DNA from: a virus
Taxonomy: Duplodnaviria > Heunggongvirae > Uroviricota > Caudoviricetes
Strand: one strand, 5' to 3'
DNA length: 28,944 nucleotides
Virus record (IMG/VR): IMGVR_UViG_2667527522_000007
Of this stretch, positions 19,108-25,446 are shown piece by piece. Each line of letters begins with the position of its first letter. Position 1 is the stretch's first letter. The position numbers and the translations under genes were made by a program. The notes under the pieces are model-generated. The model did no database searches and had not been told where the DNA came from. It saw nothing but the letters and a program-made list of their open reading frames with translations.

Positions 19108-19280
19108 TGTCAGGAGTCCTGAATAGTGATTAGAGGAGTCACATGTCGGCATCAGTTTCCCGACGATGCGCATCCTCCGCCATCAGTCCCGGATGGCTTA
19201 TCACTGACACAACAGCACCTTAGCGAATCGCGGGGCGCGACTCAGTAGCCTTGCCGTGTATTCATCACGGCGAGGTATTC
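19108..19280. promoter_or_regulatory. Divergent late promoter region (P-Q leftward partner versus O-N-M-L...), presumably Ogr-dependent
   Basis: Intergenic gap between divergently transcribed O and P; assigned by synteny with P2, motifs not verified. Confidence 0.4.
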
Positions 19281-21053
19281 ATGACCATCACCACAGACAC
19301 CACTCTTTTACACGACCCGCGTCGTCAGGCGGCGCTGCTGTACTGGCAGGGGTTTTCCGTGCCGCAGATTGCCGCCATGTTGCAGATGAAACGCCCGACG
19401 GTGCAGAGCTGGAAACAGCGCGACGGCTGGGACAGCGTTGCCCCCATCAGCCGTGTCGAAATGAGTCTGGAAGCGCGGCTGACCCAGCTCATCATCAAAC
19501 CGCAGAAAACCGGCGGTGACTTCAAGGAAATTGACCTGCTGGGACGCCAGATTGAACGGCTGGCGCGGGTCAACCGCTACAGTCAGACCGGCAACGAGGC
19601 AGACCTTAATCCGAACGTCGCTAACCGCAACAAAGGCGGGCGTCGCAAACCGAAAAAGAATTTTTTCAGTGACGAGGCCATCGAAAAGCTGGAGCAGATT
19701 TTCTTTGAGCAGTCTTTCGACTATCAGTTGCACTGGTATCGCGCCGGGCTTGAGCACCGCATCCGCGATATCCTGAAATCCCGCCAGATTGGCGCGACGT
19801 TTTATTTTTCCCGCGAGGCGCTGCTGCGCGCCCTGAAAACCGGTCATAACCAGATTTTTCTGTCGGCCAGTAAAACGCAGGCGTATGTGTTCCGCGAATA
19901 CATCATCGCCTTTGCCCGGCTGGTTGACGTTGACCTGACCGGTGACCCGATTGTCCTGGGCAATAACGGCGCAAAACTGATTTTTCTCGGCACCAACTCC
20001 AACACCGCGCAGAGCCATAACGGCGACCTGTACGTCGATGAGATTTTCTGGATCCCGAATTTTCAGGTACTGCGTAAGGTGGCATCAGGTATGGCCTCAC
20101 AGAGTCACCTGCGCTCGACCTATTTCTCCACCCCGTCCACGCTGGCGCACGACGCCTATCCGTTCTGGTCGGGTGAACTGTTCAACCGGGGACGCGCCAG
20201 CGCCGCCGAACGCGTGGAAATCGACGTCAGTCATAACGCCCTTGCCGGTGGGCTTCTCTGTGCGGACGGCCAGTGGCGGCAGATTGTCACCATTGAGGAC
20301 GCCCTGAAAGGTGGCTGCACGCTGTTCGACATTGAGCAGCTTAAACGCGAAAACAGCGCCGACGATTTTAAAAACCTGTTCATGTGTGAATTTGTTGACG
20401 ACAAGGCGTCGGTGTTCCCGTTCGAGGAGCTGCAACGCTGCATGGTCGACACGCTGGAAGAATGGGAAGACTATGCGCCGTTTGCCGCGAATCCGTTCGG
20501 CTCCCGCCCGGTATGGATTGGTTACGACCCGTCACACCGTGGCGACAGCGCCGGATGCGTGGTGCTGGCACCGCCGGTGGTGGCCGGTGGCAAATTCAGA
20601 ATACTTGAGCGTCACCAGTGGAAAGGCATGGACTTTGCCACTCAGGCGGAATCCATCCGCAAACTCACCGAAAAATACAACGTCGAATACATCGGTATTG
20701 ATGCCACCGGCCTCGGTGTCGGCGTGTTCCAGCTCGTGCGCTCGTTCTATCCCGCCGCGCGCGATATCCGCTACACGCCGGAAATGAAAACCGCAATGGT
20801 GCTCAAGGCAAAAGACGTTATCCGCCGTGGCTGTCTGGAATATGACGTCAGCGCCACCGACATCACCAGCTCGTTTATGGCTATCCGCAAGACCATGACC
20901 AGCAGCGGACGCAGCGCCACCTATGAGGCCAGCCGCAGCGAGGAAGCCAGCCACGCCGACCTCGCCTGGGCAACCATGCACGCCCTGTTAAATGAGCCAC
21001 TCACCGCCGGTATCAGCACTCCGCTGACATCCACCATTCTGGAGTTTTACTGA
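19281..21053 (+). CDS. P: Terminase large subunit (ATPase) P
   Basis: 590 aa from MTITTDTTLL; same length as P2 gpP. Confidence 0.85.
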   Translation: MTITTDTTLLHDPRRQAALLYWQGFSVPQIAAMLQMKRPTVQSWKQRDGWDSVAPISRVEMSLEARLTQLIIKPQKTGGDFKEIDLLGRQIERLARVNRYSQTGNEADLNPNVANRNKGGRRKPKKNFFSDEAIEKLEQIFFEQSFDYQLHWYRAGLEHRIRDILKSRQIGATFYFSREALLRALKTGHNQIFLSASKTQAYVFREYIIAFARLVDVDLTGDPIVLGNNGAKLIFLGTNSNTAQSHNGDLYVDEIFWIPNFQVLRKVASGMASQSHLRSTYFSTPSTLAHDAYPFWSGELFNRGRASAAERVEIDVSHNALAGGLLCADGQWRQIVTIEDALKGGCTLFDIEQLKRENSADDFKNLFMCEFVDDKASVFPFEELQRCMVDTLEEWEDYAPFAANPFGSRPVWIGYDPSHRGDSAGCVVLAPPVVAGGKFRILERHQWKGMDFATQAESIRKLTEKYNVEYIGIDATGLGVGVFQLVRSFYPAARDIRYTPEMKTAMVLKAKDVIRRGCLEYDVSATDITSSFMAIRKTMTSSGRSATYEASRSEEASHADLAWATMHALLNEPLTAGISTPLTSTILEFY

Positions 21054-22087
21054 TGAGCAAGAAAAAAGGGAAAACACCGCGACCTGCGGCAAAAACAATC
21101 ACCGCCAGCGCCCCGAAAATGGAAGCATTCACCTTTGGCGAGCCGGTGCCGGTACTCGACCGCCGTGACATTCTGGATTACGTCGAGTGCATCAGTAACG
21201 GCAGATGGTATGAGCCGCCGGTCAGCTTTACCGGTCTGGCAAAAAGCCTGCGTGCTGCCGTGCATCACAGCTCACCGATTTACGTCAAACGTAATATTCT
21301 GGCTTCAACGTTTATCCCGCACCCGTGGCTTTCCCAGCAGGATTTCAGCCGTTTTGTGCTGGATTTTCTGGTGTTCGGTAATGCGTTTCTGGAAAAGCGT
21401 TACAGCACCACCGGTAAGGTCATCAGACTGGAAACCTCACCGGCAAAATATACCCGCCGTGGCGTGGAGGAGGATGTTTACTGGTGGGTGCCGTCCTTCA
21501 ACGAGCCGACAGCCTTCACACCCGGCTCCGTGTTTCACCTGCTGGAGCCGGATATTAATCAGGAGTTGTACGGCCTGCCGGAATATCTCAGCGCCCTTAA
21601 TTCTGCCTGGCTGAATGAGTCGGCCACGCTGTTCCGCCGAAAGTATTACGAAAACGGCGCACATGCCGGATACATCATGTACGTTACCGATGCCGTGCAG
21701 GATCGCAACGATATCGAAATGCTTCGCGAAAACATGGTGAAGTCGAAAGGCCGCAACAACTTTAAAAACCTGTTTCTCTATGCCCCGCAGGGGAAAGCCG
21801 ACGGCATTAAAATTATCCCGCTCAGTGAAGTGGCGACGAAGGACGATTTTTTTAATATCAAAAAAGCCAGCGCCGCTGACCTGCTGGACGCACACCGCAT
21901 CCCCTTTCAGTTGATGGGTGGCAAGCCGGAGAACGTCGGGTCACTGGGCGATATTGAGAAAGTGGCAAAGGTCTTTGTCCGCAATGAGCTAATCCCGTTA
22001 CAGGACAGGATTCGGGAAATAAACGGCTGGCTCGGTCAGGAGGTCATCCGCTTTAAAAACTACTCACTGGACACTGACAACGGCTGA
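21053..22087 (+). CDS. Q: Portal protein Q
   Basis: 344 aa, same length as P2 gpQ; start overlaps P stop; adjacent to cos. Confidence 0.85.
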   Translation: MSKKKGKTPRPAAKTITASAPKMEAFTFGEPVPVLDRRDILDYVECISNGRWYEPPVSFTGLAKSLRAAVHHSSPIYVKRNILASTFIPHPWLSQQDFSRFVLDFLVFGNAFLEKRYSTTGKVIRLETSPAKYTRRGVEEDVYWWVPSFNEPTAFTPGSVFHLLEPDINQELYGLPEYLSALNSAWLNESATLFRRKYYENGAHAGYIMYVTDAVQDRNDIEMLRENMVKSKGRNNFKNLFLYAPQGKADGIKIIPLSEVATKDDFFNIKKASAADLLDAHRIPFQLMGGKPENVGSLGDIEKVAKVFVRNELIPLQDRIREINGWLGQEVIRFKNYSLDTDNG

Positions 22088-22256: not shown

Positions 22257-22275
22257 GTGCTTTCCCCGCCTCGCC
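22257..22275. other. cos cohesive-end site (19 nt)
   Basis: gtgctttccccgcctcgcc is the reverse complement of GGCGAGGCGGGGAAAGCAC, the P2 cohesive end as I remember it; lies just after Q as in P2. Confidence 0.6.
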
Positions 22276-22560
22276 CGCCCGCTTCACGGGGCGGTTTTAA
22301 TGCAGTTGCATAGATACTATGGATCCGCACCAGTCCTGACCGCACGCCGCCTGAACGGACATCCCCAACGCATGCAAAAACATTCACTTGTTGCATGCAT
22401 AGCTTTTTAAGTACGCCATACCGCAACTGTACATTTTTAAGCAATTGGCAACTTTAAAAAATTTACATTGCTTTCAAGACCTTATCATCCGTAGTCTCTG
22501 TTTTTTACTTTGAGCTACATCAATAAAATCTCAAACATGTTTAATGCAAAGCCCTTGTTA

Positions 22561-22615
22561 CACAACATAGAATGTATGCCTAGAAACAACGACATACTAT
22601 ATGTTGTGTTTTTCC
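22561..22615 (+). other. Long imperfect hairpin with U-tract (candidate sRNA 3' end or attenuator) in the accessory cassette
   Basis: cacaacata...tatgttgtg 9-bp outer stem with an inner gtatg/catac stem, followed by ttttt; possible promoter TTTACA-15-TATCAT about 80 bp upstream (22462-22488). Confidence 0.3.
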
Positions 22616-22675
22616 GGCTCTCTGTTCGGTGATATGCCAAATCACTTTGCGTTTAAACAGAGCATTATTTCAGGG

Positions 22676-22690
22676 CAAGACTTCGCTCAA
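22676..22690 (+). repeat. 15-bp direct repeat, copy 1 (caagacttcgctcaa)
   Basis: Exact 15-mer repeated at 22940-22954. Confidence 0.5.
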
Positions 22691-22753
22691 AAGTCATTCC
22701 ACCTAAGAAGCGCATATACCGGTGGAAGTTGCCCTCTACTTACAGGAGGCAAT

Positions 22754-22867
22754 ATGAAGAAATGCTATTACTGCATTCTCGTTCTGGCCCTCTTTGGCTA
22801 TCCAAACGGTAGTCCGAGTGGTTTGTCAGTAAACGTCAGTAATATCAATGTCAGCATTATGCTTTAA
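22754..22867 (+). CDS. Small 37-aa hydrophobic peptide, function unknown (candidate moron or small toxin-like peptide)
   Basis: AGGAGG 4 nt upstream of ATG; MKKCYYCILVLALFGYPNGSPSGLSVNVSNINVSIML; terminator immediately downstream; the 88-aa track ORF 22601..22867 has no RBS. Confidence 0.3.
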   Translation: MKKCYYCILVLALFGYPNGSPSGLSVNVSNINVSIML

Positions 22868-22880
22868 TATGCTTCAAACA

Positions 22881-22910
22881 AAAAAACCACCTGCCAGGGT
22901 GGTTTTTTTG
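22881..22910. terminator. Bidirectional rho-independent terminator (A-tract, hairpin, T-tract)
   Basis: aaaaaaccacc-tgccag-ggtggttttttt; could terminate both the small-ORF transcript and the convergent early operon ending with A. Confidence 0.6.
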
Positions 22911-22939
22911 CGCCCATCATCAATACGATGAAAGACTGA

Positions 22940-22954
22940 CAAGACTTCGCTCAA
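22940..22954 (+). repeat. 15-bp direct repeat, copy 2 (caagacttcgctcaa)
   Basis: Exact copy of 22676-22690; the pair brackets the small ORF and terminator. Confidence 0.5.
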
Positions 22955-23169
22955 GACGAATTATGCGTCGACATAAGGTTACCCGCAATGATTTTATTAG
23001 ACTAAATGGATGGCCTTTTATGACCCGGATCAAACGGCTGTCCTTACCGACATGCTAGTCACTCAATAGCATTTAGCCTTCTAATTCAGCATGCTATTGA
23101 CCTTCTGCTGCCCCATAACTGCTCCGCATAAGCCATTCAATGCCATATCAAATCACGTTGTGTTTTTAC

Positions 23170-25446
23170 TCAAATGGGTAACGAGAACCCCGGCCACTCA
23201 TCAGCAACCGGATACGTGAATTTTTTCCCGTCATAATTTACGGTCGCGCCACGCGCCAGCGCCTCAAGCTCCCATCGTTGCGGCCTGATACCGTTCTGAG
23301 CGAGGTCAACGCGGATACGGGTAATTTGCATTCTTTCCGACCGGGTCAGTCTGGCCGATGGTGCAATTTCATGTGGTTTTAACGGGCTTCCGTTTCTTTG
23401 CTGACGATTTGGTGTTCTCAGTCCGTGTTTTAATGCGCCCCTGAGCGCCATCACGACCTCCGGGTCACTCCATTCGATAACACCGTCATCTACCAGATTA
23501 AGCACTGCTGCGGCGTGCTCAGAAGGTGTGGGAGCCGGTAACGAAGTATCACCACCGGTGAGCTTTCCACAGTTATTGACAGGACTCCGAGGCGCGGCGA
23601 TGCCGCTTTTTAAAGTCAAAGGCTCAACGACCGGAACTTTCGGCACAATGCGCCAGTCCGTCGTTCTGGTGATATGAATATGACGCGCGCCGAGATGCGG
23701 CGCGTAAATGCCGACCACTCTCTCGACTTCTTCCTCGTATTCGTTAACGTCATCCGACGGGCTACGGGCGACCCTGACAGTCTGACAATCGCGCGGGACA
23801 TTTGCCCCGCCCTGCGCGCTGATATACAGCGCAAAATCGCCACTGTCTGCGGCGGCGCGTGCAGCCTCCACGCGTTCGTCAAATTCATCAGCAATGCTGA
23901 CGCCGCGAGGCAATTTACGTAGCTCACGGTAAGCTCCCATTGTCGGCAGGCCAACCGTTTTAAATTGCGGGATGCGCCACGTTGATGCCCATGCGGTAAC
24001 AGCCGCCGCAGTATCTTTCAGCGGCCTACCGGTATCATTATCGAGCTGACCATCCAGTGCATAGCCGTCGATGTTTTTTGAGATGTATTTCGCGATATAT
24101 CCCGCAGCACCGCCCCGGTTAAGGTGTTTTGCCTGAAAACGGTTTCGCGCGGCTCCTCTTTCGTCGCCATCCTCTTTGAGCGCATAGCGACGCATGATTT
24201 CAATAATCTGGTTACGCTGGCGTGGATTACAAAAAAGCATCATATGCCAGTGCGGCGTTCCGTCGTGGTGTGGCTCGACGACACGCAAACCGTAGACCTG
24301 TAAGTCATTATCCTTGAATGCCGTGCGCATCAGGCTCCAGATACGGCAGAGATATCGCTGCGCATCCTTTGGATTAAATGCCTCATCATTCCAGCCGTGA
24401 TTAAGCTGGACGGTTTTACTTTCGCCTTTTCCGACCTGACGTGCCGGGTGATACTTTGACGGCGCGGTCAGCGTGATAAACATCCCCACATCACCCTCTG
24501 CGGCGGCGTAACGCTCAATACCGGCAATGGTGTTCATCAGCTCCATCCGGCGAATTTCAGGATTAGAAATACTGCCCATCACCTTACTGATAAGGTCGAT
24601 GCGCTCGCCGGTTTCCCTGTTTTCAAGGTCACACGATTTAAGAAATTCCAGATTTGCCTGGCGGCGCGCACGCACATCACGAATGGCATGTTTACTGGCA
24701 TAAGGAGAACGGTCTTTATTGACCTCCCCGACAGCTATCAGTAACGCTTCATGCCAGCGCATACGCTGGCCTTTAAGCTGATGAGTCCACCACTCATCGT
24801 TAAACAGACGGGCAATGGCAGAATATGCCTGCCTCGTGGTCATCTGTCCTTTACGGTATTTTTTCCAGTAGAGAGGGGAAATATTGAAAGCACGTGCAGC
24901 GCCAGCAACATGACCATAGAGGTGAGCCTGCGCCTCATCCGTAAACAGCGATTCTTTCTCGCCATGCGCATCCACCCAGGCATCGCTGAGTTCCTCATAC
25001 ATCATGAAAAGCTGCGATGAGATACGGGCGGCAAACTTTTTCAGCTCCTTGTCATTCATTCCCGGCAGGCGCGCATAGTGGTCACGCTCTGCCAGAAACA
25101 GCATCGACGCGTCGGTGTTCATTTCATGGCGCTGATTCACACGCTCAATGCGCGGCCATAAACGACGCTGAAAAGTGGATGTGAGGAAATAAAACCCGTG
25201 CACCGGGCTTTTATTGCGCCGGATGTAGTCATAGCGTGAAGTAAACAGCGAGCGCAAAAAGTAAGGCAGGCGGTTAATCGTGGATAAAACACCTTGCACC
25301 TGACGCATCTCGTCACGTGTAAGAGGTCTTTCGCGCCCGACAGCCTCGCGTGGCGCGTTCCATGCATAAGCACCGGTAAACGCCTTACCGGTGCCTGCGG
25401 CAAATGCTGACGGAGGGACAAAACGCCCGGAGGCTTTAACGGCCAT
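23170..25446 (-). CDS. A: Replication initiation protein A (rolling-circle nickase family); start chosen at MAVKASGRF
   Basis: About 758 aa; P2 gpA-like by length and position at the end of the early operon. Confidence 0.85.
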   Translation of the reverse strand: MAVKASGRFVPPSAFAAGTGKAFTGAYAWNAPREAVGRERPLTRDEMRQVQGVLSTINRLPYFLRSLFTSRYDYIRRNKSPVHGFYFLTSTFQRRLWPRIERVNQRHEMNTDASMLFLAERDHYARLPGMNDKELKKFAARISSQLFMMYEELSDAWVDAHGEKESLFTDEAQAHLYGHVAGAARAFNISPLYWKKYRKGQMTTRQAYSAIARLFNDEWWTHQLKGQRMRWHEALLIAVGEVNKDRSPYASKHAIRDVRARRQANLEFLKSCDLENRETGERIDLISKVMGSISNPEIRRMELMNTIAGIERYAAAEGDVGMFITLTAPSKYHPARQVGKGESKTVQLNHGWNDEAFNPKDAQRYLCRIWSLMRTAFKDNDLQVYGLRVVEPHHDGTPHWHMMLFCNPRQRNQIIEIMRRYALKEDGDERGAARNRFQAKHLNRGGAAGYIAKYISKNIDGYALDGQLDNDTGRPLKDTAAAVTAWASTWRIPQFKTVGLPTMGAYRELRKLPRGVSIADEFDERVEAARAAADSGDFALYISAQGGANVPRDCQTVRVARSPSDDVNEYEEEVERVVGIYAPHLGARHIHITRTTDWRIVPKVPVVEPLTLKSGIAAPRSPVNNCGKLTGGDTSLPAPTPSEHAAAVLNLVDDGVIEWSDPEVVMALRGALKHGLRTPNRQQRNGSPLKPHEIAPSARLTRSERMQITRIRVDLAQNGIRPQRWELEALARGATVNYDGKKFTYPVADEWPGFSLPI

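Follow-up and report, generated by a model that had tools for sequence, protein, structure and literature searches.

Type I toxin-antitoxin systems such as tisB/istR-1, dinQ/agrB and zorO/orzO combine stress promoters, repressed by LexA, with a small RNA (sRNA) that pairs in trans. In phage P2 itself, the accessory genes tin and old lie between the replication gene A and the cohesive end (cos). The promoter of nrdDG, the operon of the anaerobic ribonucleotide reductase, carries two FNR sites centred at -64.5 and -33.5, of which the upstream one (site 2, -64.5) is necessary and sufficient for activation, while site 1 only boosts expression (PMC10425943). The nrdDG operator consists of two 16-bp NrdR boxes located 15 bp apart and overlapping the polymerase site (PMC12176259, PMC2892513).

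Here, we describe a locus carried by a P2-like prophage and contained in a window of 28,944 nucleotides, the window being the whole stretch of DNA that was analysed. We consider it likely that positions 22428-22609 represent a captured host nrdDG promoter-operator that drives a phage peptide gene, that the arms of a conspicuous inverted repeat within this interval are halves of NrdR boxes, and that a convergent sRNA faces the peptide gene. This reading draws on homology, site positions, conservation, a coding signature and covariation within the candidate sRNA.

The locus belongs to an accessory-gene region that is bounded by cos on one side and by the 3' end of gene A on the other. The terminase (19251-21053) and portal (21053-22087) genes are encoded on the plus strand and are followed by the 19-nt P2 cohesive-end sequence (22257-22275), while the replication-endonuclease gene (gene A, 772 aa) ends at 23170 on the minus strand. 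The interval of ~760 bp between cos and gene A holds the studied locus, and relatives carry variable cargo next to this position. As predicted here, the module, composed of a promoter, a leader, an open reading frame (ORF), a terminator and an sRNA, is conserved and sited in a hotspot of P2-like prophages. In E. coli W (L003, 108-2106), a gene for an AAA-family ATPase and a hypothetical gene occupy the position between the portal gene and cos; the window lacks these cargo genes there, which indicates that cargo is accommodated at two sites, one on either side of cos. In the stretch that separates the candidate sRNA promoter from the end of gene A, another perfect inverted repeat of 10 bp with an 18-nt loop was observed at 23063-23100 (arms TCAATAGCAT/ATGCTATTGA), the 5' arm of which is not kept in one of the other phage alleles (allele II). 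A 30-nt imperfect direct repeat (22625/23136, 73% identical) was considered as a duplication and rejected, its order being wrong, and is treated as chance.

The module was found in 157 of 5426 complete E. coli genomes (~3%), including E. coli W, and surplus copies of the nrdD promoter occur at 152 places in E. coli genomes, a number roughly equal to that of the genomes carrying the module. Pattern scans of viral and metagenome contigs recovered ~40 phage copies, which fall into three allele types that are 82-90% identical. Among these, one copy (L016) matches the window at 99.99%, and another (L012, IMGVR_UViG_3300045988_129873) matches it at 99.3% over 815 nt, with a peptide variant I8M and a TATCAA sequence at positions 22483-22488. 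Searching with the peptide (tblastn) revealed homologues on ~390 plasmids of Klebsiella, Enterobacter and Citrobacter with 62-68% amino-acid identity, and the full module architecture is also present in the plasmid records examined. A scan of genome contigs with the peptide pattern gave no match, and the same type of scan with a double 12-mer pattern returned a single genuine member, from Citrobacter freundii, and four unrelated tandem repeats. None of the 30 E. coli records listed carries an annotation over the module, and neither do the plasmid records listed.

Homology to the host nrdDG promoter and NrdR-box-like sequences

A sensitive DNA search gave the first sign of homology, as a short match to the treC-nrdD spacer of Salmonella. 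With blastn, the segment 22428..22574 (plus strand) proved homologous to the chromosomal nrdDG promoter in the treC-nrdD intergenic region, with 109 of 150 positions identical to the sequence upstream of nrdD in E. coli K-12 (E 8e-20 at genome-size database); the corresponding comparison for allele II reached E 1e-23. Within this segment, the TTGAT-N4-ATCAA-like box TTGAGCTACATCAA (22510..22523, plus strand) has exactly the sequence of site 2 in an E. coli nrdDG oligo (PMC10425943). A degenerate FNR site 1-like box, TTAATGCAAAGCCC (22541..22554, plus strand), follows at 31 bp from site 2, as in nrdDG. Its half-site has decayed from TTGAT to TTAAT in the window's allele, with loss of the key G, and TTGAT is kept in alleles II and III as well as in the plasmid copies. 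An nrdD-type -10 hexamer, TAGAAT (22568..22573, plus strand), stands at the same distance from the FNR sites as TAAAAT does in nrdDG. Overall, a 73-nt promoter segment is of equal length and free of gaps in eight sequences, namely six module variants and the nrdD promoters of E. coli and Salmonella. FNR would be expected to bind the 22428-22574 segment and to make its promoter activity FNR-dependent.

Because site 2 is identical and the -10 hexamer stands at the nrdDG spacing, a transcription start can be predicted at 22581..22583 on the plus strand (site 2 centre 22516.5 plus 64.5, using the positions of PMC10425943), that is, within what would be the loop of a hairpin formed by the inverted repeat. 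An RNA initiated at this nrdD-type promoter would include only the 3' arm of that hairpin and the T-run that follows. In the architecture that we propose, the promoter-operator would thus comprise two FNR sites, of which site 2 is intact and site 1 decayed, the -10 hexamer and two NrdR-box-like 16-mers flanking a start at ~22581.

When 22504-22576 was compared with seven other loci (L007, L004, L001, L034, L056, L064 and L057), the promoter part was found to track the host-type nrdD promoter. Allele II of the phages is 88% identical to E. coli nrdD and 73-78% identical to the plasmid modules, and the promoters of the latter share 85-89% identity with Salmonella nrdD. This tracking suggests gene conversion or repeated capture.

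The two 16-mers were evaluated with NrdR boxes taken from validated E. coli probes (PMC12176259), a position weight matrix (PWM) being built from four validated non-nrdD boxes. The downstream one, box 2 (ATACTATATGTTGTGT, 22594..22609), aligns with box 2 of nrdDG (ACCCAATATGTTGTAT) and scores 18.6 bits, which ranks first in the 28.9-kb window and exceeds all of the training boxes. The upstream one, box 1' (ACACAACATAGAATGT, 22560..22575), ranks second in the window with 10.4 bits, below the 14-18 bits of the validated boxes. Box 1' is found in the phage lineage only; at 22551-66, the place of the ancestral box 1, the score is -6. Both would overlap the polymerase region, with box 1' over the -10 hexamer and box 2 at about +14 to +29 from the predicted start, so that NrdR, if it binds them, might repress the promoter.

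The 5' arm of the inverted repeat coincides with the left half of box 1' and the 3' arm with the right half of box 2. The arms are complementary because two good half-sites in mirror orientation necessarily are. The apparent long hairpin is therefore most likely the DNA symmetry of two boxes, a layout suited to repressor binding, and not an RNA stem.

The spacing of the boxes brings both support and difficulty to NrdR control. Measured from start to start, it amounts to 31 bp in nrdD, 32 bp in alleles II and III (canonical) and 41-42 bp in the plasmid copies, values that lie near whole helical turns and thus fit a protein operator. The window's allele, with 34 bp (an 18-bp linker), departs from the canonical 31-32 bp (15-16-bp linker; reference spacing from PMC12176259 and PMC2892513), and this exception weakens the case for NrdR control of the window's own copy. 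In the plasmid copies the ancestral nrdD box 1 is retained and box 2 is found at 41-42 bp, with scores of 13.7 and 15.5 bits in L064. Both boxes have decayed in the copies from K. pneumoniae plasmids, indicating that NrdR control is not essential to the module.

The peptide gene and a convergent candidate small RNA

Downstream of the predicted start, a 37-codon ORF (MKKCYYCILVLALFGYPNGSPSGLSVNVSNINVSIML, 22754..22867, plus strand) is preceded by a strong and conserved Shine-Dalgarno (SD) sequence, AGGAGG (22744-22749). It encodes a short hydrophobic peptide of 37 residues, and its length is exactly 37 codons in nine variants, whose variable columns are distributed 15/11/26 over the three codon positions, i.e. 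with a third-position bias. The conserved core of the family, CILVLxLFGYPxGxxSG, was found in P2-like phages and in the plasmid loci L056-L058, L064, L065 and L062, and no family match to the peptide was obtained in Pfam, NCBIfam or PHROG. The ORF is followed by a bidirectional intrinsic terminator (22879..22910) with 13-bp perfect arms, an A-run and a T-run, which is invariant across the family.

No other conserved promoter lies before the ORF, and the predicted 5' leader of its mRNA extends over ~173 nt (22581..22753, plus strand). Homology of this leader to that of nrdD was considered and rejected, since the alignment scores were at shuffle level. A leader stem, TTCCACC/GGTGGAA (22697-22703 / 22721-22727), shows one compensatory change between alleles, from A-U to G-C at 22701/22723. 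A nearly invariant leader block at 22619-22662 (CTCTGTTCGGTGAT..GCCA.ATCACTT.TGCGTT.AAACAGAG) was also observed, with a nested stem-loop in all variants.

On the opposite strand, a candidate sRNA of ~75 nt (22879..22953, minus strand) would comprise a 5' seed, a stem-loop and the terminator, with a predicted fold of -29.2 kcal/mol (z -4.1). Its middle helix carries compensatory changes in 5 of 9 pairs, and 95% of the cells are paired, against 45-62% in slid controls; the U-G pairs of this helix assign it to the minus strand. The 5' end is invariant across variants. A candidate promoter on the minus strand (22960..22988), TTGCGG/A, 17 nt and CATAAT, keeps its hexamers and exact spacing in nine variants, the sequence of the spacer diverging while the hexamers and the 17-nt distance hold. 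A promoter-like site on the plus strand at 22936-22964 was rejected, as it is not conserved in allele II. A search of Rfam, permissive E-values included, returned no hit at gathering score for the sRNA, only weak hits driven by the terminator. The sRNA and the peptide gene are convergent and have the terminator in common, and both the ORF and the sRNA show purifying selection.

The proposed target of the sRNA is a 15-mer of the leader, CAAGACTTCGCTCAA (22676..22690, plus strand), which is an exact direct repeat of 22940-22954 and lies ~64 nt upstream of the AUG. Every phage and plasmid variant retains a core of 13-16 nt in each of the two copies, and RNAduplex placed the best sRNA-leader duplex at 22676-22690 in six variants. 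In one variant the target C is replaced by U, with a G-U pair still possible. These observations are consistent with pairing between the sRNA and the mRNA. A mechanism in which sRNA binding would free an anti-SD segment was rejected: blocking the target gave no consistent change in predicted SD accessibility, the SD being predicted mostly paired with or without the sRNA. In the circuit as we picture it, the promoter would produce an mRNA of ~330 nt that encodes the hydrophobic peptide and ends at the bidirectional terminator, and the sRNA, ~75 nt long, would present a 5' end complementary to the 13-16-nt leader sequence.

Alternative readings of the inverted repeat

The sequence-only reading had proposed that a sigma-70-like element directs a transcript of ~120 nt closed by a long hairpin acting as intrinsic terminator, or alternatively that the hairpin belongs to a structured 5' leader regulating the downstream peptide gene. 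The elements that it named are indeed present: TTTACA (22462-22467), a 15-nt spacer and TATCAT (22483-22488); an outer inverted repeat, ACACAACATA (22560-22569) / TATGTTGTGT (22600-22609), of 10 bp where 9 had been counted; an inner 5-bp pair, GTATG (22574-78) / CATAC (22593-97); and a T-run, TTTTT (22609-22613). The outer repeat is above chance, a perfect 10-bp inverted repeat with a loop of at most 40 nt being expected 0.05 times per dinucleotide shuffle of 22300-23250, and RNA folding of 22490-22620 gave -27.8 kcal/mol (z = -2.6 against shuffles).

The TTTACA-15-TATCAT element (22462..22488, plus strand) is probably not a promoter. At least one hexamer pair of the same quality (5/6 and 5/6, spacer of 15-19 nt) occurs in 44% of shuffles, i.e. 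at chance level, its 15-nt spacer is of a disfavoured length, and a sigma-70 scan did not list it. TTTACA falls within the nrdDG homology and also occurs upstream of nrdD in K-12, where the -10 position reads CGTCAT; among the relatives, TATCAT is replaced by TATCAA in L012 and L047 and is absent from the plasmid homologues.

Only 3 of the 10 pairs of the outer stem are G-C, and the 30-nt interior is partly paired. The hairpin was not listed by a terminator scan, and an Rfam search of the region gave no family match. Its conservation, proposed as a check by the sequence-only reading, is borne out for the arms, which remain perfectly complementary over 10 bp in nearly all phage alleles, but does not extend to the long stem in the plasmid homologues, where 4-7 of 10 pairs form and slid controls score equally well. 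The sole substitution seen in the arms, G22603A (L017, L021 and L031), disrupts the stem, has no compensating partner change and improves the NrdR score. In alleles II and III the T-run reads TTGTT, the inner 5' arm is deleted and the inner stem lost with it, and the minimum-energy fold is without the long stem. Covariance was examined across the three phage allele types, which are too alike for a real covariation test, and the plasmid homologues, and no compensatory change was found in this hairpin. ORFs of 40-41 aa across the hairpin were also rejected, being broken by a 2-nt indel between alleles.

Three other explanations deserve to be weighed against a captured promoter-operator. The best placed of them, which we regard as improbable, holds that the nrdD-like segment is a decaying relic of recombination with the chromosome and has no regulatory role in the window's allele; transcription of the peptide gene would then be achieved by other means or be absent, with the inverted repeat as a neutral leftover. 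The mutated FNR site 1, the 34-bp box spacing of the window's allele and the decay of the boxes in K. pneumoniae plasmid copies would all be expected from such a relic. However, copies with just 71-78% identity retain FNR site 2, the -10 hexamer and every spacing, box 2 outscores genuine boxes, the phage lineage has rebuilt an upstream box at 32-bp spacing, and the ORF and sRNA downstream show purifying selection.

Somewhat less probable again is an additional role of the inverted repeat as RNA, either as an attenuator or insulator hairpin for read-in transcripts or, together with a local stem-loop at 22582-22613, as an element that stabilises or gates the peptide mRNA. Such a role could also account for the 10-bp complementarity that is invariant in nearly all phage alleles, each variant is able to form some local hairpin right after the predicted start, and the predicted 5' end offers AGAAA as a pairing partner for the T-run. 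Yet RNAalifold yielded no consensus structure for the 5' end of the predicted mRNA, palindromic operator boxes produce hairpins of this kind automatically, and the long stem goes unused in the minimum-energy folds of alleles II and III.

Finally, despite hexamers that each match at 5/6, the fold z of -2.6 and a stem that does not vary among most phage alleles, it is very unlikely that a sigma-70 promoter at 22462-22488 yields a structured sRNA of ~120 nt ending at the hairpin and TTTTT, given chance-level hexamers around a 15-nt spacer that the scan left uncalled, a -10 that changes to TATCAA (L012, L047) or disappears (plasmid copies), a T-run unconserved in alleles II and III (TTGTT), a stem poor in G-C pairs (3/10) around a partly paired 30-nt interior and not kept by plasmid homologues, one stem change that is uncompensated, and no Rfam match.

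The promoter-operator reading retains the observations of the sequence-only reading and replaces their RNA interpretation, which we consider wrong: most probably, the region serves a small-peptide gene as a borrowed FNR/NrdR promoter-operator. Its second proposal, a structured leader controlling this gene, was right in that the region appears to be the control region of the peptide gene, but the control would be exerted at the DNA level, through FNR and NrdR. The structured sRNA of the locus would sit elsewhere, on the minus strand (22953->22879), ~350 nt downstream.

Comparison with described systems and implications

The inverted repeat shares with Rho-independent terminators and Hfq-type sRNAs a hairpin followed by a T-run, as seen in the window's allele. 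It differs from them by an AU-rich stem with a large interior and an unconserved T-run, by a promoter that lacks support and by the absence of covariation. A tandem palindromic operator can thus resemble an RNA hairpin with its terminator when judged from the letters alone, a misreading that is corrected here.

The likeness to the nrdDG promoter of E. coli and Salmonella is one of homology, encompassing ~150 bp, an identical FNR site 2, the 31-bp spacing of the FNR sites, the position of the -10 hexamer and NrdR box 2. By contrast with nrdDG, the module promoter would drive a phage ORF of 37 codons in place of nrdD, carries an insertion of 10-12 bp between the -10 and box 2, has lost the ancestral box 1 while gaining a new box 9 bp downstream, shows a decayed FNR site 1 in the window's allele, and precedes a leader unrelated to that of nrdD.

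As a whole, the predicted cassette resembles a type I toxin-antitoxin or a moron cassette. Like phage morons and the genes of the P2 gene A-cos region, it forms a self-contained unit of promoter, ORF and terminator beside cargo that is variable in relatives. It differs from morons by its partner sRNA, by a promoter that comes from a host housekeeping operon and by its presence on plasmids of the Klebsiella group.

The locus combines a new small peptide and a new candidate sRNA under a promoter that was probably copied from an operon essential to the host, and is carried by hundreds of clinical Klebsiella plasmids. If this wiring is functional, an accessory gene of a mobile element would join the targets of NrdR and FNR, which we found described only for nrd operons, and the control of a type I toxin would lie with nucleotide and oxygen status, not with SOS. 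Tentatively, and with less confidence than for the promoter-operator itself, the module could represent an undescribed mobile family of type I toxin-antitoxins on P2-like phages and IncF-type plasmids, with a putative toxin on a hijacked nrdDG promoter serving as a nucleotide-pool and oxygen-sensing switch for dormancy, addiction or abortive infection. Anaerobic conditions together with a fall in dATP, which releases NrdR, would then lead to production of the peptide, and gene conversion or repeated capture would keep the hijacked promoter in step with the resident nrdD promoter of the host.

Searches of Pfam, NCBIfam, PHROG and Rfam at gathering score gave no match to described toxin or antitoxin families (Hok, Ldr, TisB, Ibs, ShoB, ZorO, DinQ and others). 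On the K. pneumoniae plasmid NZ_CP065834 (L056, 1182-1656), a dinQ/agrB-like pair was observed ~1 kb upstream of the module copy, with an Rfam AgrB match of 45 bits and a DinQ-like ORF ending in ...IDKAIIVLKALIVFLELIRMFF.

Two features of type I systems were found in the module, a short hydrophobic ORF and a candidate sRNA complementary to the leader. With tisB/istR-1, dinQ/agrB and zorO/orzO, it shares a short hydrophobic peptide encoded behind a 5' leader that is long and structured, as well as an sRNA of small size with limited complementarity to this leader (13-16 nt), located far ahead of the ribosome binding site. In each of them, the promoter of the toxin or putative toxin also answers to a stress repressor, LexA in the three described systems and, as predicted, NrdR together with FNR in the module. 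Their arrangements differ, the tisB/istR-1-type sRNA being divergent and upstream of the toxin gene, whereas the candidate sRNA of the module is convergent, downstream, and shares its terminator with the peptide gene.
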